From Planctomycetota bacterium (GTDB lineage Bacteria; Planctomycetota; SZUA-567; H5-PLA8), in contig JBBRPR010000102.1 of NCBI GenBank assembly GCA_038227875.1, positions 1 through 16,834 of the forward strand: a DNA stretch of 16,834 bases. The letters are read 5' to 3'. The translations under genes and the position numbers were made by a program. This document shows positions 1,599-16,834 of the stretch, piece after piece (positions within the stretch are counted from its first letter, which is position 1; each line of letters begins with the position of its first letter). Under the pieces are notes generated by a model, which was given only the letters and a program-made list of their open reading frames with translations, was not told the DNA's origin and made no database searches.

Positions 1599-1669
1599 CG
1601 GGATCGTCCTGTTGCGTGCGCTTATTGCGTAGCCAAAATTATTGCGTTGGACTTTTTTGGAGACTGCAG

Positions 1670-3649
1670 ATGAAGATGAAGCTGATTATTGCTGTTCTCG
1701 CGGCCTGTTTTGCGCTGCAAATTGCGCGCGCTGCGGACGTGGTGGTGATTGATAAGCCTGAGGCGCTGCCGACGTTTGAATGGATCGGGCGCACGCTGGT
1801 TAAGGAGCCGGCGTACAAATCGGAGAAAGTGCGGTATACGATTTGGGCGCTGGGCGAGGGCAAGAAGTCGGTGATGACGATGGTGTGGGATGAGTCGGGC
1901 GGGACGGGGAAGGGGTATGACACGTTCTACTTCGACACGAATTTCAATGGCGATCTGACCGAGGCGGCGAAGTGTTTTCATGGTCCGACGTTTGACGTCC
2001 CGAAAATCAAAGAAGCGGATGGGCCGCGCGAGTTTTCGATTCATGCGGTGCTGGAAGGGGACAATTTCAACTGGCAGTCGGCGTGGGAGATGACGGGGCC
2101 GGAGGTCGGTTTCCATGTGTCGCAGCTTCCCGGCAATTTGAAGATTCAATGGTCGAACGCGCTGAAGACGGCGCCGGTCTACCACCTGGGCGGTCGCGCG
2201 GAAGTGCACGCCAACGGAAAAAATCCGGGTGAGATGCTGGCGACGTGGAGCGCCGGAGGGATGGCGGAGGTTTCGACGGATGTAAATCTCGTCGGCGAGC
2301 CGCAGTGCTTGTTGCGCTTCTACCACAGCAATGTGCCGGGCGGCGGCGAAGCGCAGATTCTGCTGCGGACGCTGAGCGCCGGCGGCGCGAAGCTGGAAGA
2401 TATTCCGTTCACCGGCGGCTGTGGTTGCGCGGGGTCGTACAACAAGGGGCTGCTGATTCCGTCGCGCGTGCCGCCGGGCGCGCATCAGGTGGTGGTGCAG
2501 CTGAACCGTCCGGCGTTTCTGGGCGGCAAGGCGGAGTTTATCTTTACGGTGAGGTTTGAGAATCCCGATTTCGGCAAGCCGCTGATCGATCCGGCATACC
2601 AGGCGCTGAAAGCGGCGTATCCGGGGGTGCCGATCGCGAGTCTGCGGCGTGTTGCGGCGCCAGGACAGGAGCTCAAAGGATTTCCGGAAGAGAATGTCGT
2701 CGCGGCTCAGGTGTTCGACAATTCGCTCTATGGACCGACGCGCGACTGGGATATGAGCCTGTTCAACGCCGGCGGCGAACCGTCGTTGAGCCTCGGCGCG
2801 CAGATCCATCACAAAGTCGATGCGCGGACGCTGATGAAGTTCGATCTTTCCGCGCTGCCGAAAGACGTGAAGATTTCCGGTGCGCAACTGCGGCTGACGC
2901 TGAGTAATTCCGCGTTCACCGGCACGCAGCCGGGAGCGAAGATCACGGCGTACGCGATGAAACGCGAGTGGAACGAACTGGAATGCGGCTGGCGCAACGC
3001 GAAGAAGGACGTCGCGTGGAGTGCGCTGGGCGCTGACGGTCCGGCCGATCACGATGCGGAAGCGGTGGGGAGCGTGGACATCGGCGGATTTCCCGCGGCG
3101 AAGGAGAAGTACCGCTTCGTGACAATTGATCTGTCGGAGCTGGTGAAGAAATGGCAGGGCGGCGAGCCGAATTATGGCGTGGTGCTGAAGTATTCGGGAG
3201 GCGGCTGTGTGAAGTTTCACAGCAGTGAGTTCCAGGATTACCCGTTCCGCCCGACATTGCTGCTGGCTTGCTCGGGTTTGGATCTGAAAGCCGCGGCGGC
3301 GCCGGCGGTGGCACTCGACGCGGATCTGGAAGCAGCGAAGGTCAGCGCGAAGAAAGCGAACAAGCCGCTGGTGGTGAAGTTTTTCTCGCCGACCTGCGCG
3401 GTCTGCAAGCGCGTGCAGGAGACTACGTTTGCCGACGCTGAGGTGAAGGCGTCGCTGGCGAAGAATTATCAATATGTGAACGTGAATATCGACGACCACG
3501 CGCAGCTGGCGCTGGAATTGGGAGTGGGCAGCGTGCCGGCGGTGGTGATGCTGAAGTCAGACGGGCAGACGAAGCTGGGCTTAATCAACAGCGAGAAGCT
3601 GACGGATACGACTGCGTTTTTGACACTGTTGAGCGATGCGGGGAAGTAA
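1670..3649 (+). CDS. Secreted multidomain protein: signal peptide, uncharacterised N-terminal domain, DNRLRE/CBM96-like domain, C-terminal thioredoxin-fold domain (CAVC)
   Basis: Start reassigned to ATG 1670 (GGAG at 1659-1662; MKMKLIIAVLAACFALQIARA is a typical signal peptide). RTLMKFDLSALPKDVKISGAQLRL...W...IDLSELVKKWQGGEPNYGVVLK...FHSSE...RPTL matches the DNRLRE-type pattern. The C-terminus AKKANKPLVVKFFSPTCAVCKR...LGVGSVPAVV is thioredoxin-like. Confidence 0.8.
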   Translation: MKMKLIIAVLAACFALQIARAADVVVIDKPEALPTFEWIGRTLVKEPAYKSEKVRYTIWALGEGKKSVMTMVWDESGGTGKGYDTFYFDTNFNGDLTEAAKCFHGPTFDVPKIKEADGPREFSIHAVLEGDNFNWQSAWEMTGPEVGFHVSQLPGNLKIQWSNALKTAPVYHLGGRAEVHANGKNPGEMLATWSAGGMAEVSTDVNLVGEPQCLLRFYHSNVPGGGEAQILLRTLSAGGAKLEDIPFTGGCGCAGSYNKGLLIPSRVPPGAHQVVVQLNRPAFLGGKAEFIFTVRFENPDFGKPLIDPAYQALKAAYPGVPIASLRRVAAPGQELKGFPEENVVAAQVFDNSLYGPTRDWDMSLFNAGGEPSLSLGAQIHHKVDARTLMKFDLSALPKDVKISGAQLRLTLSNSAFTGTQPGAKITAYAMKREWNELECGWRNAKKDVAWSALGADGPADHDAEAVGSVDIGGFPAAKEKYRFVTIDLSELVKKWQGGEPNYGVVLKYSGGGCVKFHSSEFQDYPFRPTLLLACSGLDLKAAAAPAVALDADLEAAKVSAKKANKPLVVKFFSPTCAVCKRVQETTFADAEVKASLAKNYQYVNVNIDDHAQLALELGVGSVPAVVMLKSDGQTKLGLINSEKLTDTTAFLTLLSDAGK

Positions 3650-3843: not shown

Positions 3844-4962
3844 ATGGATACCACGGATTTAGCACAATCAGCGGCGGCGGTGGGCGGACGGCAGGCGGCG
3901 AATCTGGCGCAGTCGTTGCGCCAGCGCATGGCCGACGGGCAGGTGCGCGCCGGGGAGTTTCTGCCGGGCGAGCGCGAACTGGCGGCCGAGCACGGCGTGG
4001 CGCGGAAGACGGTGGCCAGCGCGCTGAGTGCTCTGGAAGCCGACGGCCTGGTCCGCTGCGTACCGCGGCACGGCTACCGCGTCATGGCGCGCGCGCACGA
4101 TCCGACGCGCGGCGCGCCGCTGGCTTATGTGCGCACGGCTCCGCGTGCGGAGAAGCACCGCGAAACGGTGCACAACCATTTGCTCTCGATGCTCGAGCAG
4201 CTCGCGAGTCCTCACAGTTGGTCGATCCTGGCGATGCCGTCGGTGGGCAGCGCGCCGAGTGAAGTGATGCAGCGGCTGAAAGCGGCCGGCGCCAGCGGCG
4301 TGGTGCTGGAAGTGATGGACAAGCCGATGTTGGATTTGATCGCGGCGGCGGGGATGCCGGCGATCTGCGTCGATTCGTGGGCGGAAGGCGCGGAGATCGA
4401 TGCCGTCGTGCAGGACGGATTCCTCGGCGGCCTGCAGGCGGTGAACTGGCTGACGGCGCGCGGGCACCGGCAGATCGGCTGGTTCGGGCACGCGCTGAGC
4501 ACGTTTCAGAGCCGCATGCGGTTCAGCGGCGTGGCCACAGGATTGTTTGAAGCGGGACTGGAGATCGACCGCAAGCTGTGCGTGGAATGCGACGAGGCGG
4601 GGGTTCTCGACGCCGCCTTGAAGCTGCTTTCGCAGCGCCACCGGCCGACGGCCATCGTGACGCTATGGAGCCGACACGCCGCGGCAATTCTGACGGCGGC
4701 GGCGCAGTTGAAGCTGAAATTGTACCGCGACTTCGACCTGGTCAGTTGGACGACGGAAGAAGATTACGCCAGTGCCTATCGCACTATCCTGCCGGGCACT
4801 TTGGTTCCGCCGACGATTGTGTGGCGCGTGCGCGACATGGCGGAGGCGGCGATGTTCCGCCTGGTGCAGCGGCGCGAACACAGCGGCCTGGCGGCGGTGC
4901 AGATCCGCATTCCGACCCGGCTGGAACTGGCGAAGGGCACGCCGGCAACGTTCGGGCGTTGA
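3844..4962 (+). CDS. GntR-family winged-HTH regulator with LacI-type sensor domain (second paralogue)
   Basis: GEFLPGERELAAEHGVARKTVASALSALEADGLVRCVPRHGYRV (GntR HTH); VVQDGFLGGLQAVNWLTARGHRQIG and RPTAIV (LacI sensor); AAGGGA upstream of the ATG. Confidence 0.9.
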   Translation: MDTTDLAQSAAAVGGRQAANLAQSLRQRMADGQVRAGEFLPGERELAAEHGVARKTVASALSALEADGLVRCVPRHGYRVMARAHDPTRGAPLAYVRTAPRAEKHRETVHNHLLSMLEQLASPHSWSILAMPSVGSAPSEVMQRLKAAGASGVVLEVMDKPMLDLIAAAGMPAICVDSWAEGAEIDAVVQDGFLGGLQAVNWLTARGHRQIGWFGHALSTFQSRMRFSGVATGLFEAGLEIDRKLCVECDEAGVLDAALKLLSQRHRPTAIVTLWSRHAAAILTAAAQLKLKLYRDFDLVSWTTEEDYASAYRTILPGTLVPPTIVWRVRDMAEAAMFRLVQRREHSGLAAVQIRIPTRLELAKGTPATFGR

Positions 4963-5003
4963 TTCAGAAAAGTTGTGCAGTGGGGCAGAGCGGGGGAGTT
5001 TCC

Positions 5004-7481
5004 ATGCGCATCGCAGGCTCAATTTTACTCGCAGCGTTGTGTTTGGCGCGGGCACTGGCGCAGGAGACGGCGGTGAGTTTCACTGCGCCGCCGACGTTCA
5101 CGCGCTCGGGCGACGGCGGGACGATTGCGTTCACGGCGTCGTCGGTGACGGACGTGGAAGTGGCGATCGTCGGCGCTCAGGGGAAGGTCGTGCGGCATCT
5201 CGTCGCGGGGTTGCTGGGGAAGGGCGCTCCGGAGCCGTTGAAGCCGGATGCGCTGCAGCAGTCGGTGGCGTGGGACGGGAAGGACGATCTGGGGCAGACG
5301 CCCTCGGCATCCGCCGGACCCTTTACGGCGCGGGTGCGGCTGGGGATGCATCCGAAGCTGGATTCATTCATCGGCTATAACGCGTCGACGCTGGGATCCG
5401 TGCGTGGGATTGCGTGCGGGCCGACGGGCGAAGTGTTCGTCTTCCATGTGATGGGCGGATTGCACCCCGGCGACGGCACTGCGCAGTGCTCGGTTTTTTC
5501 GCGCGACGGAAAATACGTGCGCACGATCATTCCGACGCCGGCAAACATTCCGGCGGAGAAGCTGAAGGGCGTTAAGCGCATTGAACTCGGCGACGGGAAG
5601 AGCGTCCCATTCATCTACAACGTGGAGACGCGCCAGTTGCTACCCGGCACCGGCGACATGCCGGCACTGGGGCCGGTGGTTTCCAAGGATGGACGGGTGA
5701 TTTTCCCGGTGATTCTCGACCACATGCAGCGTTATCCGCAGCCGGGTCCGGAGCGCATCATGAATTTGAATCCCGACGGCAGCGTGGCGCCCGAAGGGCT
5801 GCTGACGTGTGCGCTTTCGCCCAACAATTCTCGGTCGGCGTTTCTGGCGCTGTCGCCGGACGAGAAGACAATTTACGCGGCGGGTCTGACAGGAAAGAAA
5901 GGTTCGGCCGACCACGTGGTGTTGAAGTTCGGCCGCGAGGACAAGCAGCCGCAGGTCTTCGCCGGGAAAGTGGGCGAAGCAGGGAACAGCGAGACGCTGC
6001 TCGACGATCCCTGCGACGTGGCGACGGACAAGGCCGGCAACGTGTACGTCGCGGATTTGAAGAACGATCGCATTGCGGTGTTTGCACCGGACGGAAAATT
6101 CCTGGCGGCGATGAAGGCCGATAAACCGCAGCGCGTGAAAGTGAACGCGGCGACCGGCGCGGTCTACACGCTGGGCGGCGTGGGGGTGAACGTGCTGCAG
6201 AAGTTCACCTCCTACAAAGACGCAACGCCCGTGGCGAGCGCGACGCTGCCGACGTTCAAGAACGATGGATACACGGCGTTCATGGCGCTGGATACGTCTG
6301 CGGCGACCCCGGCGCTGTACCTGGGGAACACGCATTCGGGCTACTGCTATTCGCTGTTGCGGGTGGAAGATTCGGGCAAAGAGTTTGCGAAGCCGGTGGA
6401 ATTGGGGAAGCAACCGGGAGGCATCGGGTCAGTGATGTCGGTGGAGTACGACCGGGTGCACGAAAAACTGATTTCCAATAACCGGACGTTCGACCCGGTG
6501 AAAAATCTGTTTGGACCCGCGCCACAGAGTTTGAATGGCGTGGGATATCCGATTTCGGTGGGGATGGATGGGAATTTCTACACGCAGCTCTATGGCAATT
6601 TTCTGATGCGGCTCAGCGGTGAATTCAAGCCAATGACGTTTCCGGAATCGAAGGAGAAAAACGGCTGGATGCACGACGGCCACACCTCGGCGCGGTTGCG
6701 CGGGCGGGGGATCGACGCGGATCCGGCGGGGAATGTGTTCATCATCTGGCAGGAGGATTACACGTCGCCGGCGATGAACTACGTCGATGTCTACACGCCC
6801 AGCGGCGCGATGAAAAAAGAGAAGCTGATCGATTCGGATATTCGCAGCGTGAATTCCATCCGGCTGGATTACCGCGGAAATGTTTACGTCGCGCTGGGTG
6901 CGCGACCGGGGACGGAGAAATTCCCGAAGGACTTTCAGGGCAAGATTCCCGACGGGGCGGACGATCCGGAAGCGTGCGGCGGATTGAACGGTTACCCGAT
7001 GCTCTACGGCAGCATCGCGAAATTCGGCCCGGACGGCGGCGTGATCAAGCTGGGTAGCGGCGGCGAGCCGTGTAATTATGCGTTCAAAGGAAAAACGGAC
7101 GTGAAAGGTGCGAAGTGGATTCATGGCGGCGCCAGCCCGGTGCCGTCGTGGCGGACGGCGGGGACGCCGGACATTTGCCTGTGCGAATCGCCGCGCTTTG
7201 ATGTCGATGGTTACGGGCGCAGCTTTTTTCCCGACGCGGGCCGATTTCGCGTCGGCGTGCTGGACACAGGCGGCAATGAGCTGGCTTTTTTCGGCAGCTA
7301 CGGCAACCCCGATTCCGGCGGCCCAGGCAGCGCGATTCCAGCGCCGGAGATTCCGTTCTGGTGGATCTACACCGTGGCGGTGGCCGATGACGTGGTCTAC
7401 TGCGGCGACCGGCTGAGCCGGAGAATCGCCGTGGTGAAGCTCGAGTATGCGGCGGAGAAAACGGTGGGGGTGGGAAAGTAA
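5004..7481 (+). CDS. Secreted protein with N-terminal FlgD-like Ig domain and NHL-repeat/beta-propeller region
   Basis: Start reassigned to ATG 5004 (GGGGAG upstream; MRIAGSILLAALCLARALAQ is a signal peptide). DVEVAIVGAQGKVVRHL...VAWDGKDDLG is FlgD-Ig-like; LDDPCDVATDKAGNVYVADLKNDRIAVFAPDGKFL is a clear NHL repeat; further blade-like segments follow. Confidence 0.8.
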   Translation: MRIAGSILLAALCLARALAQETAVSFTAPPTFTRSGDGGTIAFTASSVTDVEVAIVGAQGKVVRHLVAGLLGKGAPEPLKPDALQQSVAWDGKDDLGQTPSASAGPFTARVRLGMHPKLDSFIGYNASTLGSVRGIACGPTGEVFVFHVMGGLHPGDGTAQCSVFSRDGKYVRTIIPTPANIPAEKLKGVKRIELGDGKSVPFIYNVETRQLLPGTGDMPALGPVVSKDGRVIFPVILDHMQRYPQPGPERIMNLNPDGSVAPEGLLTCALSPNNSRSAFLALSPDEKTIYAAGLTGKKGSADHVVLKFGREDKQPQVFAGKVGEAGNSETLLDDPCDVATDKAGNVYVADLKNDRIAVFAPDGKFLAAMKADKPQRVKVNAATGAVYTLGGVGVNVLQKFTSYKDATPVASATLPTFKNDGYTAFMALDTSAATPALYLGNTHSGYCYSLLRVEDSGKEFAKPVELGKQPGGIGSVMSVEYDRVHEKLISNNRTFDPVKNLFGPAPQSLNGVGYPISVGMDGNFYTQLYGNFLMRLSGEFKPMTFPESKEKNGWMHDGHTSARLRGRGIDADPAGNVFIIWQEDYTSPAMNYVDVYTPSGAMKKEKLIDSDIRSVNSIRLDYRGNVYVALGARPGTEKFPKDFQGKIPDGADDPEACGGLNGYPMLYGSIAKFGPDGGVIKLGSGGEPCNYAFKGKTDVKGAKWIHGGASPVPSWRTAGTPDICLCESPRFDVDGYGRSFFPDAGRFRVGVLDTGGNELAFFGSYGNPDSGGPGSAIPAPEIPFWWIYTVAVADDVVYCGDRLSRRIAVVKLEYAAEKTVGVGK

Positions 7482-8072: not shown

Positions 8073-9596
8073 CTACCCCTTAATTGTCATCAACGGCCTG
8101 AGTTCCGCGACGGGGCGGGCGAGTCCGGCGCCGGTCAGCGTGTTGATGACGGGTCCGATGCCTTTGTAGGCGAACGGCGCTTCCTTCTTGATGTCCTCCA
8201 GCTTTTTCTCGACGATGTCGCGGCGCTGGCGAATGTCGGTGCGGCGAAAATCGATCGGCGTGACGACGCGGAAGTCTTCCATGAATCGCCGGAAGGCTTC
8301 GTTGTTGCCCTTCAGCGCATCACCGCGCGAGAGCACGCGCCCCGCGCCGTGACTGGCGCTGCACAGGGAAGATTCATTGCCCAGTCCGGCGAGCACGAAA
8401 CTCGACGCACCCATCGAGCCGGGAACGAGCACCGGCTCGCCATAGTACGCAAACGGTGTCTGTTCCATCTGCTCCATCCCACGCGCGGGGCAGGCGCCTT
8501 TCCGATGGACGTAGACGCTTTCGCCGTCCCACTCCTCACGCCAGACCATGTTGTGCGGCGCGTCGTAAAGCAGATTGCAATCCATGCCTTTGAATTCATC
8601 GTTCAGTGCATTGACGGCAATCAGCGCAAGCATCATGCGATTGGCGAAAGCGAAGTTCGCGGCGTTGTGCAGGCAGTCCCAGAACAACGCCGATGCGTCG
8701 CTGAAACGATCGCCGTCGGGCAATGGAAAAATGCCGTTGGCGGGATGCTTCAGTGAGATGGGAAAGATGCGGCGGACCTGCTCGCGGTAATGGCTGCCAC
8801 AGAGATGGCCAATGGCGACCGAACCGGTGTGAACCATGACGGTGACCATGCCGGGCTTCAATCCCCAGGCGTGTGCGACGGTGCCATCGAGAATGCGATG
8901 GACCTGTTGGATTTCGACGAAATGATTGCCGCCGCCGATGCTGCCGATCTGGCCGTCGCGGGTGACGTCCGCGGTACCGAGAAAATCGTCCAGGCCGTAC
9001 GTGCGATGAGCCGGAAGACTTCCGCGCTGCTCAACACGAGTTATGTCGCGCGTGGCATGGCGATGGAACACGGACCAGACTCCGGTGTCCTGCGACTTGG
9101 GTACAGACTCCAGCAGTCCAGTCAGTCCTTCGCGCATCAGCGCTTCGCGCTGAACGCGATTCATGGGGATGTTGCGTCCGCCTTGGAAATAAGCATGCCG
9201 CAGCCGCGTCTCCAACGTGTCCAGCCTGGCGGTGATCTGTTCCGCACGCAGAGAGGTCACGTGCAGACGCATGCCGCAATTGATGTCATTGCCAACCGCG
9301 GCCGGGACCACAAATCCACGCGTGGCCATGATGGTGCCCACGGGAACGCCAGCCGCCTTATGAAAGTCCGGCGTCACGGCAACTTTGCATATGCGAGGAT
9401 TCTTCGCGAAGAAGGACGGCTCCGCTTCCTGGAGGCGTTCGACGGTGCGTTGTAATTCCAGCATCGCGACCAGTTCGTTGATCGCCACGGATTCAACGGG
9501 AACCTGAGCGTTGGCAAAGAGGACCGCATCGACGCCGGACGGATTCACGACGCGGAACGAATTCTCATCGACTTTTTCCAAACGATCGTCTGTCAT
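8073..9596 (-). CDS. rtcB: RtcB family RNA 3'-phosphate/5'-OH ligase
   Basis: RtcB motifs in the expected order: TPDFH, GVPVG, VGNDINCGMR (metal Cys), GSIGGGNHFVE, VHTGS, APHN, VHRKGA, PVLVPGSMG, SASHGAGR (guanylylated His), EAPFAYK, LRPLMTIKG; AAGGGAG RBS upstream. Confidence 0.95.
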   Translation of the reverse strand: MTDDRLEKVDENSFRVVNPSGVDAVLFANAQVPVESVAINELVAMLELQRTVERLQEAEPSFFAKNPRICKVAVTPDFHKAAGVPVGTIMATRGFVVPAAVGNDINCGMRLHVTSLRAEQITARLDTLETRLRHAYFQGGRNIPMNRVQREALMREGLTGLLESVPKSQDTGVWSVFHRHATRDITRVEQRGSLPAHRTYGLDDFLGTADVTRDGQIGSIGGGNHFVEIQQVHRILDGTVAHAWGLKPGMVTVMVHTGSVAIGHLCGSHYREQVRRIFPISLKHPANGIFPLPDGDRFSDASALFWDCLHNAANFAFANRMMLALIAVNALNDEFKGMDCNLLYDAPHNMVWREEWDGESVYVHRKGACPARGMEQMEQTPFAYYGEPVLVPGSMGASSFVLAGLGNESSLCSASHGAGRVLSRGDALKGNNEAFRRFMEDFRVVTPIDFRRTDIRQRRDIVEKKLEDIKKEAPFAYKGIGPVINTLTGAGLARPVAELRPLMTIKG

Positions 9597-9762
9597 GATG
9601 GCGTGCTCCCTTACACGAGCTCTGTCGAGCCGTGCGATTCAATTTTTGATTCAAGTTTTGGTGGCCGACAGTAACGCTGGCGGCTGAAAACGAAGCAACG
9701 ACGTGCGATCTGGCGCCGTCGTTGGGGGAAGGGCTATGAGCGCCCTCAGCAGCGGGCAGTGC

Positions 9763-9792
9763 AATAAACCATGTGGGAAAGGGCGTTGTCAA
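9763..9792 (-). promoter_or_regulatory. Putative sigma70 promoter of rtcB
   Basis: Minus strand perfect TTGACA (9792-9787), 18-nt spacer ending TGG, then TTTATT (9768-9763); implies a ~160-nt leader. Confidence 0.5.
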
Positions 9793-9869
9793 ATTAATAG
9801 ATAAAGGAGAAGTACTGCTTAAATGGTGTAATCACCCACCGATTTTTTGACTTCATCCGTCATGTGGAT

Positions 9870-10367
9870 TTACTTCTCTGGAGACAGATCACTCAAGAGT
9901 CTTTGCAGTTCAAGAAATCTTTCGTCATATCCAGCTTCCCAAGGAAACTTTCCCTGCTTGTCGGGCCAGATTAATTGAGTTGCTGGATAGGGCTGGTTTA
10001 GTGATCTGTAGAACCAATTTGCATATCCAAGATATTCCTCGTAATGTTCCAGCCCAATTGAGACGAAAGTGCAATCAAAACCCTCCGCCAGATCGCTTGC
10101 TCGTTCGTATTCCCTGTAGCGCTTGCCGTTCTTTAGGCGAAGGCCGATTAAATTTATTAAATGATGCGCAATTGAATGCTTCAACCCCATGATCAGAACT
10201 TCGGGTGCGCCAAACGAGAGGTAGAATCCTACCGAAAAAGAAAAGGCTGGGCCGGTCTCATCCTCAAAGATATTGATGACGTGCCAACCCAAGCTATTGA
10301 TATCGGATAGAAGCTTGCGGTCGCGATCGTCAGCGGCAACTGGCAAACTATACTCGGATGGGATCAT
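9870..10367 (-). CDS. DUF4262-like domain protein (low GC)
   Basis: INSLGWHVINI...PAFSFSVGF...GAPEVLIMGL...QLIWPDKQGKFPWE...Q fits the DUF4262 pattern. Start uncertain: ATG 10367, or the longer ORF from 10460. Confidence 0.8.
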   Translation of the reverse strand: MIPSEYSLPVAADDRDRKLLSDINSLGWHVINIFEDETGPAFSFSVGFYLSFGAPEVLIMGLKHSIAHHLINLIGLRLKNGKRYREYERASDLAEGFDCTFVSIGLEHYEEYLGYANWFYRSLNQPYPATQLIWPDKQGKFPWEAGYDERFLELQRLLSDLSPEK

Positions 10368-10612
10368 CGAGTTAGACCATTCATACGAAATCGAACGCCT
10401 CAGTTCAGGCACATATTGGAACTGATAATTTTCTAGCCCATCCGAGGTCGTCGGCAACATCCTTATCGCAATATCCTAACCTCTTTAGCATAAACGCTTA
10501 GTAGTATAGAGAAAAGAATTTCAAATTTCTCTTATCACTTCCCAAACAGTGGACTTGGATAGGTAGAGGATTCGGGAACAGGGCTGCGGCTTCGGCGCCA
10601 AAAGGGATTACA

Positions 10613-12085
10613 ATGGCAGCTCTCGAACTGAAACCGCGCGGAGCTGCCATGGACACGGCCGACGACCTTGCCCTTTTAAACGCCATCGCGGAACAACGTG
10701 ACCGCGGTGCGTTTACCGAGCTGGTCGAACGGCATCGCGAACGCGCGTACAATATGGCCTACCACATTCTGCGCAACTCCGCGCTGGCCGAAGAGGCGTT
10801 GCAGGAGTCGATGCTCGCCGTCTGGCTTAACGCGAAAACGCTGCGGCCCGAAGCCAACGCGGCCAACTGGATCCTGCGGATCGTATCGGGAAAAAGCCTC
10901 AATCTTAAACGGAACCGGACGCGCAGCGTCCGACGCGAGGAGCGTATGAGCACCATTGAATGTGGACGTGCGATTTCCGCCGCGGAAGACGCGGCCGAGC
11001 GCACGGAATTGATCGGCGCGCTGCGCAGTCAGCTCGAGGAATTGCCGGAGCTCGATTCGCAGCTTCTGGCGTGCAGCTTCGGCGCGAACATGTCGCACCG
11101 CCAGATCAGCGAATTCTTCAATCTCTCGCAGCCCACCGTTGGATCGAAAATTCAACAGGCGCTGTCGCGGTTGCGGAATGGATTGACGAAGGCAGGCGTC
11201 GCCGCGGTGGTACCGCTGGTCAGTGCGGAGAATTTGTTTGAAGCGATGACGACCGGCCAGACTTGTCCTCCGGGCGCGGCGCTGCGGGTGCTGAAATGCA
11301 TCGACAACGTCGGCAAGCCGGCGGCCAGGGCGCTCTCGAGGCGCGCGGTGGTTAAAGCGGGCTCGGCCGGGAGCGGCCCTTGGGCCGTGCTGGCGGTGAC
11401 GGTGGTGCTGGCGAGCGGAGCGGCCATCGCGTGGAGAACCTCAACTCCGGGCACTCCAGCGGCGCAGCAAGCCGCGAAAATTCCGGACACGGTCACCGTG
11501 CAAAGCGAGGACCCGGGTTGGATTCCGGTGAGCGTGGATACATCGTTCACGCTCCATGGGAAGTTTGACGGCAGCCACGACACTCAGCAGTTCTCTCAAT
11601 TCTCCAACAGCCGCGGTGGCTCGGCAATCTGGAAGATTGAGCAGACTCCGACGGGCACGGTGCTGGCGCAGCGGGATCCGAAGCTTCCCGATCATAACGT
11701 GATTGTATTCAGTAAGGACGTATCCGGTCCGATGGAGTGGTCGGCCACACTGGACGACACCGACGCATCCGACCGCAATGAAATCGCTGTCGTGGTCTTC
11801 GACGAAGCGCTGCAGGGGAAAATTTTTGGCGGTCACAGCGTTCGGAAATCGAAGAGCGTCTTTCGCATCGTGGTGTGGAATACCGCTGACGGCATGAAAC
11901 TGATCGCGCTGCGCGACCCCGAAACAAAAATCATGTCAGGCATTACGACGATGAAGGCTGGACGGTATTCCGTCGGCATCCTGACCAATGCAGCCCTGAC
12001 GCTGCGCGATTTCCGGATGAGAAAGTTGCCCGCCGATTGGACGCCCAGGCAGGATAAGTTTCTGAGCCATTTCAAAATCGAGTAG
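10613..12085 (+). CDS. ECF-type sigma-70 factor with long C-terminal extension (one predicted TM helix plus extracytoplasmic beta-rich domain)
   Basis: Region 2 (DRGAFTELVERH...AEEALQESMLAVW...NWILRIV) and region 4 (LEELPE...MSHRQISEFFNLSQPTVGSKIQQALSRLR), then hydrophobic PWAVLAVTVVLASGAAIAW (~11378-11434) and ~200 further residues. Alternative start ATG 10649. Confidence 0.9.
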   Translation: MAALELKPRGAAMDTADDLALLNAIAEQRDRGAFTELVERHRERAYNMAYHILRNSALAEEALQESMLAVWLNAKTLRPEANAANWILRIVSGKSLNLKRNRTRSVRREERMSTIECGRAISAAEDAAERTELIGALRSQLEELPELDSQLLACSFGANMSHRQISEFFNLSQPTVGSKIQQALSRLRNGLTKAGVAAVVPLVSAENLFEAMTTGQTCPPGAALRVLKCIDNVGKPAARALSRRAVVKAGSAGSGPWAVLAVTVVLASGAAIAWRTSTPGTPAAQQAAKIPDTVTVQSEDPGWIPVSVDTSFTLHGKFDGSHDTQQFSQFSNSRGGSAIWKIEQTPTGTVLAQRDPKLPDHNVIVFSKDVSGPMEWSATLDDTDASDRNEIAVVVFDEALQGKIFGGHSVRKSKSVFRIVVWNTADGMKLIALRDPETKIMSGITTMKAGRYSVGILTNAALTLRDFRMRKLPADWTPRQDKFLSHFKIE

Positions 12086-12107
12086 TGCACCGAACGCGGA
12101 GGTCGCC

Positions 12108-12974
12108 ATGCTGAGGGTGGAAGACATGGATGTCCTGGGCCTGTGCCCCGAGACGCGCTACACGCGGCAGCCGTCGAAGGCATCGCAGGTGCTGCGGGCG
12201 ATCCGGGATGATGCGGAGCAGGGTGTCGCTCTGGATATCGCCGCGGAGAGCGACGCGAATGCGGCGTGCCGCATCGTCGCGGCGGCCACGCGGCAGTCGC
12301 GGCAGCGGGCCTACGCGCTGGCGCACCGCGTGTACCGGCGGTCGGGTTACGCGCGGAACGAAGGAACCGGATTGTGTCTCTCACCCTTTGATGCCATCGA
12401 CCAGACGCTGACGTTGCTGGCGGAAAACGCGGACGGTCAGGCGACGGCGACGCTCTCGCTGGTCTTCGATTCCGATGAGGGATTGCCCTGCGATGAGATT
12501 TACCGTCCGGAAGTTGACGCGTTGCGCGCGCGGGGCTGCCGGCTGGCGGAAGTCACGCGCTTGGCGATTGAAGAACCGTGCGCGGACGCCAAAAGTCTGC
12601 TGCTGCGAATGTTCAACTACTGCTACATCTTCTCGCGTTTCATCCGGGGTTGCACCGATCTGGTGATTGAAGTCAATCCGTCGCATGTGAAATATTACCG
12701 GCGGCTGCTGTTGTTTACGCAGGTTGGACCCGAGCGTCGCTGTTCGCGCGTGCAAGGCGCGCCGGCAGTGCTGCTGCGACTGAATCTGGCTGAGATTGAA
12801 GCCGCGGTCAAAGGCTCGGGCTTTACGGAAGGGCGCGATTCGAGCGGCAACCGGCTGCACGCGTATCCGTATTCCGAAGCGGAAGAGGCGGCGATCGCCG
12901 AATCCCTGGCGCGCCAGCACCGGCCGATGTCCGCGGAAGAAGCGCGCTACTTCGGGTTGCAGCGCCAGTCCTGA
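12108..12974 (+). CDS. Long-chain N-acyl amino acid synthase (FeeM/NAS family, GNAT fold)
   Basis: AYALAHRVYRRSGY, ATLSLVFDSDEGLPCDEIYRPEVDALRARGCRLAEVTRLAI, DLVIEVNPSHVKYYRRLLLF and RVQGAPAVLLRLNL are typical FeeM-family motifs; GGAGGT RBS at 12098-12103. Confidence 0.85.
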   Translation: MLRVEDMDVLGLCPETRYTRQPSKASQVLRAIRDDAEQGVALDIAAESDANAACRIVAAATRQSRQRAYALAHRVYRRSGYARNEGTGLCLSPFDAIDQTLTLLAENADGQATATLSLVFDSDEGLPCDEIYRPEVDALRARGCRLAEVTRLAIEEPCADAKSLLLRMFNYCYIFSRFIRGCTDLVIEVNPSHVKYYRRLLLFTQVGPERRCSRVQGAPAVLLRLNLAEIEAAVKGSGFTEGRDSSGNRLHAYPYSEAEEAAIAESLARQHRPMSAEEARYFGLQRQS

Positions 12975-13042
12975 AAATTCGCATCACAAGAACTCTAAAA
13001 GATCGCGGCCGCACGCAACTCTGAGCGAGGTAGTCGATCATC

Positions 13043-14737
13043 GTGAGCTCTATCGAAACACAAACGCTTTCGAGCACCCGCTGCGCCGAGGCGGAATTCG
13101 CCAACGCCGCCGATGCATTTCCGCGCGTGCTCGACGCGTTGCGCGCGGTGGTGGGCGAGGGGTTTGTCCAGGACGACGCGGAAGTTCGTAAGCGGCGAGC
13201 GCGCACCACGCTGCCTACCGGAACGGTGCCGCGCGTGATCGTACAGCCGGCCAGCACGCAGGAAGTTCAGGCGGTGGTCAAGATTGCGGCGAGTTTTAAA
13301 TTTCCAATTCATCCCATCAGCGGCGGAAAGAATTGGGGCTATGGCGATGCCTGCGCGCTGACGCACGGACAGATCCTGCTGGATCTGAAACGCATGAACC
13401 GCATCGTGGAAGTGGATGCGGAACTCGGCTACGCGATCATCGAGCCCGGTGTGACGCAGGGGGAACTGGCTGAATATCTGGAAGCTCACGATTTGCCATT
13501 CATGCCCGACGCGACGGTCGCCGGGCCATCAGCCAGCATCGTGGGCAATACGCTGGAGCGCGGGTTTGGGCACACGCCGCACGGCGATCGATTTCTGCAC
13601 ACCTGCGGGATGGAAATCGTGCTCGCTGACGGCCGCGTGTTGAAAACGGGCTTCGGACATTTCGAAAATGCGCAGGCTGCTTCCGTTTACAAATGGGGCG
13701 TCGGCCCGTACCTCGACGGAATTTTTACGCAGTCGAACCTGGGAATCGTAACGCAGATGACGTTCTGGCTGTTGCCCAAGCCGGAATGCTTCAAAGCGTT
13801 CTTCTTCAGCGTCAAGAATCCGGAAGACATCGGCGGCCTCGTGGACGCGCTGCGTCCGTTGCGGATGAACGGCACGCTCACCACGCCGATCCACATCGGC
13901 AACGATCTGCGCGTGATCTCCATGACCCAGGCGTATCCGTGGGAGGAGATGCAGGGCCAGACGCCGCTCAGTGCAGAAGTCCGGCGCAGCATCGGCAAGC
14001 GCCACGGCGTATCCGCGTGGTCCGGTTCGGGTGCGCTCTACGGATCGAAGGCGGTCGTGGCCGCGGCGGAAGCGGAAGTGCGCAAAGCGCTCCGCGAAGT
14101 GACGGGACTCAACACGCTGGTCTTCTTCGACGAACGCCGCATGCGCTGGGCGCGCCGCGCGATCAATGTGCTCACCACGTTTGGAATCGGCGCCACTCTG
14201 GCGAGGTTGTTCAAGAAAGTGGAATTGGGATTCGACCTGCTGCGCGGCCGCTCACCGGACAATTGCGTGCAGTGCGGCCTCTGGCGCGTGCGCAACGCGC
14301 CCGCGGAGGGTCCGGAGCGCTCCGCCGATCCGCTCGATCACAACGCGGGATTTTTGTGGCTCTCGCCGGTGTTGCCGATGAAGCGCGCGCACATTGAACG
14401 GGTCAACGCGTTGCTGGAACCGATTTTCAATCGCTACGGCTTCGACTACCTGACTACGTTCTCGATGGTGACCGCGCGCTCGCTGTGCGCCGTGACGACG
14501 ATCGCGTTCGACAAATCCATTCCCGACGAGCGGCGTCGGGCGTCGGCGTGCCACGCGGAGGCGCTCGGTGCGCTCGTCGCGGAGGGATATATCCCGTACC
14601 GGATGGGAAATTCAGGGATGGAAAAGTTGGGCCAAGCGTCGTCGGTCTACTTCGACGTGACCGCCCGCATCAAATCCGCGCTCGACCCCCACGGCATTAT
14701 TTCTCCCGGCCACTACCAACCCAACGAGGCGCGGTAG
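13043..14737 (+). CDS. FAD-binding oxidoreductase, VAO/PCMH (4-phenol-oxidising) family; FeeG/CndG-like candidate
   Basis: HPISGGKNWGYG, LDLKRMNRI, IEPGVT, SIVGNTLERGFGHTPHGD, CGMEIVLADGRVLKTG, GPYLDGIFTQSNLGIVT, GYIPYR, IKSALDPHGIISPG; GTG start with GAGGT upstream. Confidence 0.9.
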   Translation: MSSIETQTLSSTRCAEAEFANAADAFPRVLDALRAVVGEGFVQDDAEVRKRRARTTLPTGTVPRVIVQPASTQEVQAVVKIAASFKFPIHPISGGKNWGYGDACALTHGQILLDLKRMNRIVEVDAELGYAIIEPGVTQGELAEYLEAHDLPFMPDATVAGPSASIVGNTLERGFGHTPHGDRFLHTCGMEIVLADGRVLKTGFGHFENAQAASVYKWGVGPYLDGIFTQSNLGIVTQMTFWLLPKPECFKAFFFSVKNPEDIGGLVDALRPLRMNGTLTTPIHIGNDLRVISMTQAYPWEEMQGQTPLSAEVRRSIGKRHGVSAWSGSGALYGSKAVVAAAEAEVRKALREVTGLNTLVFFDERRMRWARRAINVLTTFGIGATLARLFKKVELGFDLLRGRSPDNCVQCGLWRVRNAPAEGPERSADPLDHNAGFLWLSPVLPMKRAHIERVNALLEPIFNRYGFDYLTTFSMVTARSLCAVTTIAFDKSIPDERRRASACHAEALGALVAEGYIPYRMGNSGMEKLGQASSVYFDVTARIKSALDPHGIISPGHYQPNEAR

Positions 14738-14826: not shown

Positions 14827-14913
14827 CGGAGCGAGAGGGATTCGAACCCCCGAGACCCTTGCGGGCCTAGTAGTTTTCAAGACTACCGCAATCGACCACT
14901 CTGCCATCGCTCC
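14827..14913 (-). tRNA. tRNA-Ser (anticodon UGA), CCA not encoded
   Basis: Reverse complement GGAGCGA-TG-GCAGAGTGGTCGATTGC-G-GTAGT-CT-TGA-AA-ACTAC-TAGGCCCGCAAGGGTCTC-GGGGGTTCGAATCCCTC-TCGCTCC-G: 7-bp acceptor stem, long variable arm, TTCGAA T-loop, G discriminator. Confidence 0.97.
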
Positions 14914-15078: not shown

Positions 15079-16834
15079 TTACTTTGAGAGCAGTGCGCCG
15101 GTGGCCTTTACCTTGGATTTGAGGTCGAAGGTTGCGGTGTAGTTCTGGCCGCTGATGCTCACGGTCAGGACGCAGGGGTGGACTCCCGATGCCGTCTTAG
15201 ACAACATGCCCGCCGCTAACCATGCCGATGCCCAGCTGCCTTTCTTGAGCGTGGCTTTGAACGGTACGTTCGCGGGAAGCACCGTTGCAGTGACGCCTTT
15301 TTTAGCTTTGGGCGCTTTGATGGTAAGCGCGAACGAGCCGTTGGCAGAGGCTGACTTCCCGTTCTTATCGAGCGTGAAATTGAAGCTCACGCCGCCGAGT
15401 GTCAATGTCGCGACTTTTCCGGTCAGATTCGATGCCACGAAGTTGGGCAGAATTCCGCTGACCGCGGCGGAATCGGAACCCGTCGTCACGAAGCTTACGG
15501 CGCCTTTGAACTTGCTCAGATTCATGGGGAGCGGAGGTGTCGCGCCGCCGCCACCACCGCCACCCGTGTCCGCGGTGGTGAAGAGCGTCGAAATCGTGTG
15601 GTCGCCAGTCACGTTATTGAACGTGTACGAGGCCACCGCGCCGATGGAAACGCCGTCCACGCTGACATCAGAGATCACGAAACCGGTGTTCGCTGCGATG
15701 GTGAAGGCCTGGCTTGCTCCCGAGGCGAGTGATGTCGCGCCAGTGGGCGAAATTGTTCCGCCCGCGCTGGCTGAGGCGGTGATGGTGTAGTTGACGGCAG
15801 TGACGACCAGTGAGACCGACTTGGTCGCGGCCGTATAGTTCGTGGCGTCGGTCGGCGAGAATGTGACGGTGAGCGTCTGCGTCCCTGCGCCGAGCGCCGT
15901 GCCGCTGACGGGCGTGTATACAAACGTTCCGGGCACGCTGGCCGTGGCGTTGAGCTGCGTGGCGCTTAGCGCCGTGCCGCTGGTGATTGCTGCGGGATTG
16001 GACCAGGTGAGGATGGGGGTAACTTTGTTCACGACGATCGTGACGCTCGCCGTCGCGTTGGCGTAGGTTGCCGTATCGGCGGGAGTAAACGTGACCGCCA
16101 GCGTCTGCGTTCCGGCATTCAGCACCGTGCCGGAGGCCGGGGTGTAAATAAACGTTCCTGGCACGCTGGACGTCGCATTGAGCTGCGTGGAGCTCAAGGC
16201 GGTGCCGTAGTTAATTGCGACGGGAGCGGCCCACGCGATGGTCGGCGTAATCAAGTTGGCGACCGTAAGTGTGCCCGCGACGTACGTGACGGAGTAATTT
16301 GCAGCGACGGCGCCGCTGGCGGTGATTGGATATGTTCCCGCGGGACTGCCGGCCGTGGCGGTCGTGGCCAGCGTGGGAGATGTGCTCAAGCTGGCGGACG
16401 TGTCTCCGTTAACGAATCCGGAATAGCTGACCGTCAGGGCGGGCAGAGCTGCACCCACCGTCTTCGTTTTTGAATCGGCCGTGATCGTTAGAGCTGCCTT
16501 GTTCACGGCGAGCGTGGCCGTCTTCGTTGTAGAACTGTAGTCCGTCGCGTCGGTCGGCGTGAAGGTGACTGACAGCGTCTGCGCGCCCGCGCCGAGCACC
16601 GTGCCGCTGGCCGATGTGTAAACGAATGTTCCCGGCACGCTGGCCGTGGCGTTGAGTTGCGTGGCGCTCAGCGCGGTGCCGTAGGTGATCGCGGCGGGAT
16701 TGGCCCAGGTGATTATCGGCGTGGCCTTGTTCACGGTCAGTGAAACGGACTGCGTCGAGGTCGTGAAGTCGGTCGCGTCGGTGGGTGTGAACGTCACAGA
16801 CAGAGTCTGCGCACCGGCTCCGAGCACCGCGCCG
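15079..16834 (-). CDS. Large surface/secreted repeat protein, C-terminal part (5' end outside window): ~76-aa Ig-like repeats, MBG domain, bacterial repeat domain, Gly linker, basic C-terminal domain
   Basis: The frame is open to the window edge. TPxIxWxxPAAIxxGTALSxTQLNATxSVPGTFxY...QTLxVTFxPxD occurs as three full copies and one partial; AALTITADSKTKTVGAALPALTVSYSGFVNGD...GTYPITASG...NYSVTYVAGTLTV is MBG-like; YTITASASAGGTISP...YTFNNVTGDHTI is a bacterial repeat unit. Confidence 0.88.
   Translation of the reverse strand, partial: GAVLGAGAQTLSVTFTPTDATDFTTSTQSVSLTVNKATPIITWANPAAITYGTALSATQLNATASVPGTFVYTSASGTVLGAGAQTLSVTFTPTDATDYSSTTKTATLAVNKAALTITADSKTKTVGAALPALTVSYSGFVNGDTSASLSTSPTLATTATAGSPAGTYPITASGAVAANYSVTYVAGTLTVANLITPTIAWAAPVAINYGTALSSTQLNATSSVPGTFIYTPASGTVLNAGTQTLAVTFTPADTATYANATASVTIVVNKVTPILTWSNPAAITSGTALSATQLNATASVPGTFVYTPVSGTALGAGTQTLTVTFSPTDATNYTAATKSVSLVVTAVNYTITASASAGGTISPTGATSLASGASQAFTIAANTGFVISDVSVDGVSIGAVASYTFNNVTGDHTISTLFTTADTGGGGGGGATPPLPMNLSKFKGAVSFVTTGSDSAAVSGILPNFVASNLTGKVATLTLGGVSFNFTLDKNGKSASANGSFALTIKAPKAKKGVTATVLPANVPFKATLKKGSWASAWLAAGMLSKTASGVHPCVLTVSISGQNYTATFDLKSKVKATGALLSK
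15800..16834 (-). repeat. Intragenic ~228-bp coding repeats
   Basis: Near-identical DNA, e.g. ggcacgctggccgtggcgttgag at ~15932 and ~16634, with a more diverged copy at ~16160; these encode the Ig-like units. Confidence 0.8.

Follow-up and report, generated by a model that had tools for sequence, protein, structure and literature searches.

A membrane-anchored ECF sigma factor, a FeeM-type synthase and a phenol-oxidising flavoprotein: a candidate operon for modified N-acyl tyrosines in a planctomycete

The locus and its genes

The window analysed here, a stretch of 16,834 nucleotides, is contig C102 of a 9.34-Mb planctomycete assembly that consists of 176 contigs and has an estimated completeness of 88%. 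Three genes on its plus strand encode, in this order, an extracytoplasmic function (ECF) sigma factor with a membrane anchor, a FeeM/NasY-type synthase of N-acyl amino acids (NAS) and a flavoprotein of the VAO/PCMH family of 4-phenol-oxidising enzymes (Table 1). These identities, proposed in a first-pass annotation made from the DNA letters, are borne out by matches to Pfam, to TIGR02937, to the FeeM structure 2G0B and to further entries of the PDB. The best explanation of the locus, which we favour with some reserve, is that it is an operon for the cue-induced synthesis of a modified lipoamino acid, an N-acyl-tyrosine derivative that is probably the enamide.

The three co-directional genes are separated by spacers of 22 and 68 nt, as annotated. 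The claim that each gene has a ribosome-binding site holds for gene 2, whose ATG is preceded by GGAGG at a distance of 6 nt, and less well for genes 1 and 3, which have poorer Shine-Dalgarno-like stretches: GGGA at 8 nt before gene 1 and GAGG at 12 nt before gene 3. No terminator was found in either spacer, in agreement with the annotation; the scan carries little weight either way because the whole 5.7-kb region, with 5 terminator-like sites, yielded no more than the 6.5 expected from shuffled sequences. A divergent DUF4262 gene delimits the operon on its upstream side, and a tRNA-Ser(TGA) gene on the minus strand (14827-14913) does so on its downstream side. The cassette was also correctly described as containing no gene for an acyl carrier protein (ACP) or for FeeH, the interval 10613-14737 being filled by the three genes.

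Table 1. Features of the sigma factor-synthase-flavoprotein cassette (positions in the window)
Feature	Position	Strand	Evidence
AT-rich promoter-like motif, about 100 nt 5' of the sigma start	10512-10534	+	Gibbs motif, 25.8 bits
ECF sigma factor, membrane-anchored, 490 aa (gene 1)	10613-12085	+	Pfam, NCBIfam, hydropathy, ectodomain model
Sigma2 region of gene 1	10721-10924	+	Sigma70_r2, residues 37-104
Sigma4 region of gene 1, followed by a linker	11018-11179	+	Sigma70_r4, residues 136-189
Predicted transmembrane helix of gene 1	11375-11431	+	Hydropathy scan, residues 255-273
Predicted periplasmic beta-sandwich domain of gene 1	11438-12082	+	Predicted model, residues 276-490
22-nt spacer of genes 1 and 2, with GGAGG ribosome-binding site	12086-12107	+	Sequence; spanned by one metatranscriptome contig
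FeeM/NasY-type N-acyl amino acid synthase, 288 aa (gene 2)	12108-12974	+	PF21926, similarity to 2G0B
Conserved N-terminal motif of gene 2	12165-12206	+	Alignment of 35 synthases
FeeM domain of gene 2, followed by a conserved C-terminal extension	12309-12785	+	PF21926
68-nt spacer of genes 2 and 3	12975-13042	+	Sequence; terminator scan with no site
VAO/PCMH-family 4-phenol-oxidising flavoprotein, 564 aa, GTG start (gene 3)	13043-14737	+	Pfam, PDB matches
FAD_binding_4 domain of gene 3	13229-13651	+	Pfam, E 2.5e-29

The synthase

Residues 68-226 of gene 2 match positions 2-158 of the 158 positions of the FeeM profile PF21926 with an E value of 4e-47 and 160.4 bits, the cut-off being 27. Residues 55-229 align with residues 10-181 of the solved FeeM structure (2G0B_A, E 8.9e-11). 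When 35 synthases of this genome and of related ones are aligned, Glu148 of gene 2 falls on the Glu in the 'KLAEV' stretch of FeeM and is invariant; we take this position to be that of the proposed catalytic base of FeeM. The complete GNAT core is conserved together with this catalytic-type Glu. Outside the part that aligns with FeeM, the sigma-linked synthases keep two motifs, RRxSAVSQxLRAI at the N-terminus (residues 20-33 of gene 2) and HRPMSxxEAxYFGL at the C-terminus.

The flavoprotein

Gene 3 contains the PF01565 domain (FAD_binding_4). Its best match in the PDB is nsVAO of Novosphingobium (9FFK, E 6e-99), followed by PCMH (1DII, E 5e-89) and VAD of Marinicaulis (8S7x, E 2e-81); EUGO and VAO match more weakly, the E values of the five enzymes ranging from 6e-99 to 1e-59. 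All of these best solved relatives are 4-phenol oxidases or dehydrogenases of the VAO/PCMH family. Tyr100 and Tyr519-Arg520, which, following the VAO literature, we take to be the phenolate-binding residues, are invariant across the five paralogues of this genome. At the N5 site, Thr158, a dehydrogenase-type residue, aligns with an Asp of VAD and a Thr of nsVAO, and Phe437 takes the position of the flavin-linking His387 of VAD. Neither the flavin-linking His nor the Asp/Glu at the N5 site that mark VAO/EUGO-type enzymes is present. The region of the flavin-linking Tyr of PCMH is unalignable owing to an insertion of about 40 residues in gene 3 (query 352-435) relative to nsVAO and PCMH; the six residues that precede the aligned block at 435 contain no Tyr. 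Based on Thr158, Phe437 and the lack of a recognisable flavin-linking Tyr, gene 3 resembles a phenol dehydrogenase or oxidase whose FAD is probably bound non-covalently. PMC7617285 is the source for what 9FFK and 8S7x are, for the non-covalent FAD of nsVAO, for the flavin-linking role of His387 and for the roles of the N5-site residues.

No member of a cytochrome c family occurs among the annotated neighbours of the window cassette and of the four other flavoprotein cassettes of the genome; in the window, gene 3 is followed by the tRNA gene. The missing cytochrome partner makes a catabolic role in p-cresol degradation of the PchF/PchC type unlikely. Gene 3 is instead a candidate N-acyl-tyrosine oxidative decarboxylase of the FeeG/CndG type.

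Coupling of synthase and flavoprotein

All five flavoprotein paralogues found by tblastn in this genome (37-82% identical) lie directly after a FeeM gene. Thirty related genomes contain six homologues, five of which have a FeeM match no more than 5 kb away (three of these pairs are co-directional, one is divergent and one is convergent), so that 10 of 11 copies are linked overall. Among 2051 database homologues are two natural fusions, P0039 (812 aa) and P0042 (822 aa), in which PF21926 and PF01565 occur in one chain. P0039 shows 34% identity to the window synthase in its residues 25-231 and 50% identity to the window flavoprotein over 525 ungapped residues; it retains the N-terminal synthase motif, with no sigma factor attached.

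In a FastTree phylogeny of 90 flavoprotein rows, none of them a PCMH, VAO, FeeG or CndG outgroup, the window flavoprotein belongs to a clade of seven rows (support 97), each of which is linked or fused to a synthase. The sister clade of eight Massilia rows is synthase-linked throughout. Mapped on the tree, the synthase-linkage label changes 10 times compared with a mean of 26.4 after shuffling, and none of 500 shuffles gave as low a number. The clades of Hydrogenedentota/Nitrospirota and of Acidobacteriota contain no rows with a FeeM-type ORF in the DNA examined. Linkage, natural fusions and the synthase-linked clade indicate that synthase and flavoprotein are functionally coupled, and the flavoprotein is tied to NAS genes, as had been supposed, rather than being an unlinked catabolic PCMH.

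Two observations concern other partnerships. In the sister family, the frames L144:11443-13467 (genome G028, 675 aa) and L150:3880-5679 (genome G021, 600 aa) match both the FeeM and the ThiF profile and appear to be natural synthase-ThiF fusions, parallel to P0039 and P0042. In 19 Acidobacteriota loci with no FeeM gene, an ORF of about 283 aa (for example L091:3541-4389, plus strand) that has no Pfam match lies upstream of the flavoprotein homologue on the same strand; it may encode an alternative acyltransferase or some other partner.

The sigma factor and its outer domain

Gene 1 matches PF04542 (Sigma70_r2) and, for region 4, PF08281 and PF04545; its sigma regions are sigma2 and sigma4 only, as in the group 4 or ECF factors, and scores 80 bits with TIGR02937, the NCBIfam profile of the ECF superfamily (cut-off 42.9). 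The annotated membrane anchor is supported by a single hydropathy peak, and each of the 16 cassette sigma factors (see below), that of the window included, has exactly one strong peak, located within residues 243-300. The Arg- and Lys-rich sequence that precedes the helix of gene 1 fits a cytoplasmic N-terminus and a periplasmic C-terminus. No separate anti-sigma gene adjoins gene 1, whose neighbours are the divergent DUF4262 gene and the synthase gene. The predicted topology is that of a sigma factor fused to a single-pass anti-sigma factor.

The outer domain of the window protein has one paralogue, at locus L025 (27-29% identical), and no further homologue in a search of 5.8 billion proteins or in the loci of the relatives. 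An AlphaFold model built from these two sequences (pLDDT 68.6, pTM 0.71, moderate confidence) is all-beta and matches ConA-like lectin, SPRY/B30.2, DUF1080 and CBM66 domains with Z values of 8-11 and a Foldseek E value of about 3e-4, similarities that indicate the fold class only. The domain thus models as a lectin/SPRY-like beta-sandwich of about 215 aa. The outer domains of the other 14 cassette sigma factors are related to each other (19-25% identity) and show no profile similarity to that of the window (hhalign probability 0.7%). As judged by these comparisons, the outer domains of the cassette sigma factors comprise at least two families with no detectable relation, and their type differs even among cassettes that share a tailoring enzyme. 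Unrelated C-terminal extensions have likewise been reported for ECF duplicates of planctomycetes (PMC7671368).

A complex prediction of sigma residues 1-255 with the synthase, based on separate alignments and run with no controls, scored 0.00 in both runs, a score that counts neither for nor against an interaction. The closest paralogue of the window sigma factor is encoded at L009:8094-8705 (minus strand, contig C64); it is 55-77% identical where aligned and contains region 4 only, with no region 2 or ectodomain. Several cassettes have an additional short ECF-like sigma ORF that immediately follows or precedes the synthase gene (L013:7814-8170, L017:7848-8390, L018:7970-8545 and L019:6801-7730), some of these ORFs containing region 4 only.

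A family of sigma-headed cassettes

PF21926 has 19 matches in the genome. All of their neighbourhoods were taken, and 151 neighbouring ORFs were annotated with Pfam. An ECF sigma gene of the same architecture (479-533 aa) accompanies 16 of the 19 FeeM genes, on the same strand and with at most one gene between; it lies upstream of the synthase gene in 15 of these cassettes and downstream in one (L026). The exceptions are L011, which has a sigma fragment only, L016, which has some 950 nt of upstream sequence before the end of its contig, and L022, where a different sigma fusion is encoded on the opposite strand. A sigma core occurs within 2.5 kb upstream of 15 of the 19 synthases, a number that averaged 0.12 and never exceeded 2 in 2000 random trials. 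Conversely, the genome has 48 sigma hits of this type, and 21 of them have a FeeM gene nearby.

The flavoprotein is present at only 5 of the 19 FeeM loci, and the window trio is one of about 16 sigma-headed FeeM cassettes with differing tailoring genes. Seven cassettes contain a ThiF gene, together with a nitroreductase-like gene in L011, L018 and L024 and without one in L013, L015, L023 and L026; Pfam annotation revealed neither type of gene in the window cassette. Other variable genes are a glycosyltransferase gene (L014), methyltransferase genes (L021 and L026) and MacB/HlyD/ABC export genes (L009, L015 and L024). The closest sister of the window cassette is L009, whose synthase is 74% and whose flavoprotein is 82% identical to the window proteins.

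Sixty FeeM neighbourhoods were sampled in 10 other genomes. Six of these genomes belong to the same family as the window genome, and in them the long sigma gene stands next to the synthase gene and on its strand at 24 of 33 testable FeeM loci (G004, 16 of 22; G001, 1 of 1; G002, 3 of 4; G006, 1 of 1; G010, 2 of 2; G012, 1 of 3). Sigma-synthase synteny, a check named in the first-pass annotation, is supported both by these genomes and by the 16 of 19 loci described above. The number of FeeM-profile matches rises from 19 in this genome to 24 in G004 and 47 in G021. In the sister family, no ECF core was found near the 10 FeeM ORFs of G028 or near 28 FeeM ORFs of G021, of whose 47 matches 20 regions were sampled. 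The FeeM-flavoprotein pairs of Massilia lie in PEP-CTERM/exosortase-type loci with no such sigma factor, and those of Desulfobacterota and Syntrophobacteraceae likewise have none. Since the sigma link recurs in genomes of the same family and is absent from the sampled sister family and from Massilia, it appears to be a family-level invention laid over a more widespread enzyme pair.

Many of the 47 FeeM matches of G021 (6.8 Mb) are split in one frame into profile positions 1-41 and 44-158, and many lie in frames of 600-970 aa; the split suggests an insertion inside the domain. At L057, L067, L074, L078, L081, L082 and L101, loci of Massilia and relatives, the pair is part of a conserved locus that also encodes a PEP-CTERM protein, a chain-length protein of the Wzz/GNVR type and a TPR protein of 1375 aa.

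Relation to known systems

In the window, as in the fee cluster of soil environmental DNA (the synthase FeeM with the flavin oxidase FeeG; Brady, Chao and Clardy 2002, cited by PMC8762209 and PMC11959600), a FeeM-family synthase is encoded beside a VAO/PCMH-type flavoprotein whose expected target is the tyrosyl moiety of an N-acyl-tyrosine, and CndG acts in chondrochloren biosynthesis; the proposed conversion is from acyl-tyrosine to enamide. The window differs from these systems in having no dedicated ACP or acyl-activating genes, in being headed by a membrane-anchored ECF sigma factor, in its planctomycete host and in being one of many paralogous cassettes. A small acyl-tyrosine pathway with no dedicated ACP is encoded by the hyellamide locus of Hyella patelloides, where HyeB is a FeeG/CndG homologue and the acyl donor is thought to derive from primary metabolism (PMC11959600). 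Unlike gene 2, the hyellamide acyltransferase is of the SGNH/GDSL type; the locus also encodes glycosyl and acetyl transferases, and no sigma factor is described for it in the accessible text of that paper.

The loci for stieleriacine, thalassotalic acid, kyonggic acid and tyrazolone (PMC12479983) resemble the window in combining a NasY/FeeM synthase with a tyrosine-modifying oxidoreductase. They encode NasY, the ThiF-like TyzB and the nitroreductase-like TyzC, and the TyzB/TyzC pair is proposed to form dehydrotyrosine (PMC12479983); in the window, a VAO-type flavoprotein takes the place of ThiF and nitroreductase. According to the same paper, the planctomycete genes are mostly not clustered, and the words 'sigma', 'ECF', 'FAD' and 'oxidase' do not occur in its text. 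NAS genes linked to PEP-CTERM/exosortase systems in Gram-negatives (Craig, Cherry and Brady 2011, cited in PMC7293339) share their context with the Massilia flavoprotein loci; they lack this type of ECF sigma factor, and the window lacks exosortase-type genes.

Gene 3 shares with PCMH (PchF/PchC), VAO, EUGO, VAD and nsVAO (PMC7617285) the fold, the FAD_binding_4 domain and conserved phenol-binding residues, but it has no cytochrome subunit gene beside it and is linked to a synthase instead of to genes of aromatic catabolism. Gene 1 resembles the ECF sigma factors with regulatory C-terminal extensions (PMC7826278, PMC7671368) in having a sigma2-sigma4 core, a long extension and no separate anti-sigma factor, and in both systems the extensions diverge much faster than the core. 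In contrast to those factors, the extension in the window consists of a linker, one predicted transmembrane helix and a predicted periplasmic beta-sandwich, and a FeeM-type synthase consistently follows. The word 'acyl' is absent from the main texts of the two papers, whose supplements, outside the search, may describe an ECF group with this context. With the exception of these supplements, neither sigma-synthase cassettes nor a planctomycete FeeM-flavoprotein pair were found in the literature searched. Within these limits, the enzymes and their chemistry are of known kinds and the regulatory wiring and its scale are new.

Proposed function

In the model that we favour, gene 1 would be tethered to the cytoplasmic membrane by its one helix, with the sigma2-sigma4 core in the cytoplasm and the beta-sandwich in the periplasm. 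A ligand from outside, which is less likely to be a lipid than a glycan or a protein, would act on the periplasmic domain, upon which the sigma core would be released or activated by a conformational change and would transcribe its own operon. Gene 2, with its GNAT fold, would then acylate an amino acid, most likely tyrosine, with a fatty acyl chain that presumably comes from the acyl-ACP of primary metabolism. In the cytoplasm, gene 3 would take a hydride from the benzylic carbon of the N-acyl-tyrosine, and the resulting p-quinone methide would most likely lose CO2 to give an N-acyl enamide. The product could serve as a signal, an antibiotic, a surfactant or a membrane lipid. Two indirect arguments favour decarboxylation over desaturation: the desaturation route has ThiF/nitroreductase cassettes of its own in this genome, and Asp170 of VAO, the residue used for water addition, is replaced by Thr in gene 3. 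FeeG and CndG carry out the oxidative decarboxylation of N-acyl-tyrosine (PMC8762209, PMC11959600).

Several observations weigh against this model or parts of it. The sequence of the synthase does not reveal which amino acid it uses; tyrosine is the most likely substrate, being favoured because the partner flavoprotein keeps a phenolate-binding site. The quinone methide may instead end in desaturation or hydroxylation, and the best 120 of the 2051 database matches of gene 3 include no protein named FeeG, CndG or HyeB. Among 80 flavoprotein homologues from other phyla, 20 have a FeeM-type ORF in the DNA examined and 60 have none, although 21 of the 90 tree rows, labelled from less than 2.5 kb of flank on one side, include some of the 60. 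The flavoprotein family is therefore not universally linked to synthases. A missing FeeM gene need not exclude an acyl-tyrosine substrate, since the FeeG/CndG homologue of the hyellamide pathway works with an SGNH-type acyltransferase (PMC11959600).

Sigma control faces similar difficulties. A regular-expression search for a GGAAC-type -35 and a CGT-type -10 element gave no hit upstream of the window sigma gene and three hits among the 16 cassettes, two of which lie inside ORFs. Gibbs sampling revealed a shared AT-rich motif 80-160 nt upstream of 13 of the 16 cassette sigma genes, the other three sites (L012, L014 and L015) having been dropped beforehand from the matrix as apparently misaligned. 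Its specificity is weak, with 87 hits above 19 bits in the genome versus 25-42 for column-shuffled matrices; the motif may be simply a general promoter element and, being AT-rich and poorly specific, it is set aside as evidence of autoregulation. The divergence of the sigma core is uncorrelated with that of the synthase (Mantel test with 16 pairs, r -0.17, 4427 of 5000 permutations as high). In the sister cassette L009 the sigma gene beside the synthase encodes a truncated copy of 203 aa, a different full-length sigma gene being located upstream; the short ORF looks like a decaying copy in an otherwise intact cassette. Two of the three G012 loci carry the sigma gene in the cluster, convergent to the synthase gene and not upstream of it. 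A wetland metatranscriptome contig that corresponds to 12066-12271 (206 nt, one mismatch) comprises the start of the synthase gene, the entire spacer and 20 nt of the sigma gene, and a second short RNA contig covers 12341-12525. Both come from the same single RNA run, in which 5% of the sampled words are present. The spanning contig is weak evidence of expression and, with 20 nt on the sigma side and from a run that may contain DNA, is too little to call read-through; the stretches with no coverage carry no information.

One alternative is that the sigma factor is a mere neighbour, or a regulator of other genes, and that genes 2 and 3 form an independent biosynthetic unit under their own control. 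Besides the lack of co-divergence and the decayed sigma copy of L009, this rather unlikely alternative is favoured by the sigma-free pairs of Massilia, Desulfobacterota and Syntrophobacteraceae, by the sister-family FeeM expansions (0 of 10 in G028 and 0 of 28 in G021 with a sigma gene in the sample) and by the proposal of Pinto et al. (2020) that planctomycete ECF duplicates were inserted fortuitously (PMC7671368). Arguing against it is an adjacency about 100 times that expected by chance in this genome, which, irrespective of the tailoring gene, is seen again in six family members, and a spacer of 22 nt with no terminator-like site.

A second alternative is an autoinducer loop, in which the exported product would bind the periplasmic domain of the sigma factor and raise its own synthesis in the manner of LuxI/LuxR. 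Such a loop was proposed in the first-pass annotation, and it would accord with the adjacent, co-directional genes for a synthase and a putative sensor in many cassettes, with the positive feedback that an operon headed by its own sigma gene would give and with the effect of stieleriacines, planctomycete N-acyl tyrosines, on biofilm composition (PMC7293339). The outer domain, however, models as a lectin/SPRY/CBM-like beta-sandwich, a fold usual for glycans or proteins, and it has a single paralogue, no other homologue among the 5.8 billion proteins searched and no profile similarity to the outer domains of the other 14 cassette sigma factors. The divergence of the C-terminal extension does not follow that of the synthase (Mantel test with 16 pairs, r 0.01), and the same tailoring enzyme occurs with different ectodomains. 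The proposal is not supported by these results, and we consider the loop improbable.

It is very improbable that the synthase-like protein is a part of the sigma control, for example a cytoplasmic partner or anti-sigma factor that binds the core or the linker through its conserved N- or C-terminal extensions. The two motifs shared by sigma-linked synthases outside the FeeM-aligned part and the lack of a separate anti-sigma gene would fit such a role, but conservation extends over the entire GNAT core with its catalytic-type Glu, the sigma-free fusion P0039 retains the N-terminal motif and the surrounding tailoring enzymes argue for a metabolic function. The automatic name '4-cresol dehydrogenase' of many homologues, the rank of PCMH among the best PDB matches and the dehydrogenase-type N5 residue might suggest that gene 3 encodes a dehydrogenase for the catabolism of p-cresol or 4-alkylphenols and stands beside the synthase gene by chance. 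This is scarcely credible given the absence of a cytochrome c subunit gene from the flavoprotein cassettes, the 10 linked copies among 11, the natural fusions and the synthase-linked clade.

Implications

An operon for cue-induced synthesis of a modified N-acyl tyrosine would have consequences for the search for planctomycete natural products. Compact cassettes with their own regulator contrast with the planctomycete natural-product genes reported as mostly unclustered and hard to assign (PMC12479983), and overproduction of the soluble sigma core would be a direct and cheap way to switch on silent cassettes and find their products. The pairing of FeeM with a VAO-type enzyme predicts enamide-type acyl-tyrosines in planctomycetes, from which only dehydrotyrosines (the stieleriacines) have so far been reported. 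The cassettes also offer a naturally occurring set of single-pass sigma factors, exchangeable in their outer domains, that would be useful for studies of the activation of membrane-tethered sigma factors.

A bolder extension, which we regard as doubtful, is that this planctomycete family runs some 16-20 orthogonal cue-to-lipid modules, in each of which a membrane-anchored sigma factor reads its own outside ligand by means of a fast-evolving outer domain, switches on its own synthase and tailoring enzyme and causes a distinct lipoamino acid to be emitted. If true, this would amount to a combinatorial chemical vocabulary wired by sigma factors and not by LuxR-type receptors or two-component systems, with tailoring by a decarboxylase, a desaturase/cyclase or a glycosyl- or methyltransferase and with a product of its own for each cue that would be a signal or a weapon.

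Neighbouring genes

The GC content falls to 0.48-0.52 at positions 9500-10500 of the window, compared with about 0.61 elsewhere; this stretch spans the DUF4262 gene (9870-10460, minus strand) and the upstream region of the sigma gene and is adjoined by a gene for an RtcB RNA ligase (8073-9596, minus strand). Farther upstream, two paralogous regulators, each with a GntR-type HTH and a sugar domain of the LacI type that is periplasmic-binding-protein-like, are encoded on the plus strand at 429-1598 and 3844-4962. Between them lies the gene for a 739-aa protein with DNRLRE/CBM96 and thioredoxin domains (1430-3649), and after them that for a 967-aa NHL/SGL beta-propeller protein (4578-7481). Convergent to the operon, the minus strand encodes at 15079-16834 a large surface protein with MBG/Ig-like repeats, an alternative form of which is open at its 5' end and reaches the end of the window.

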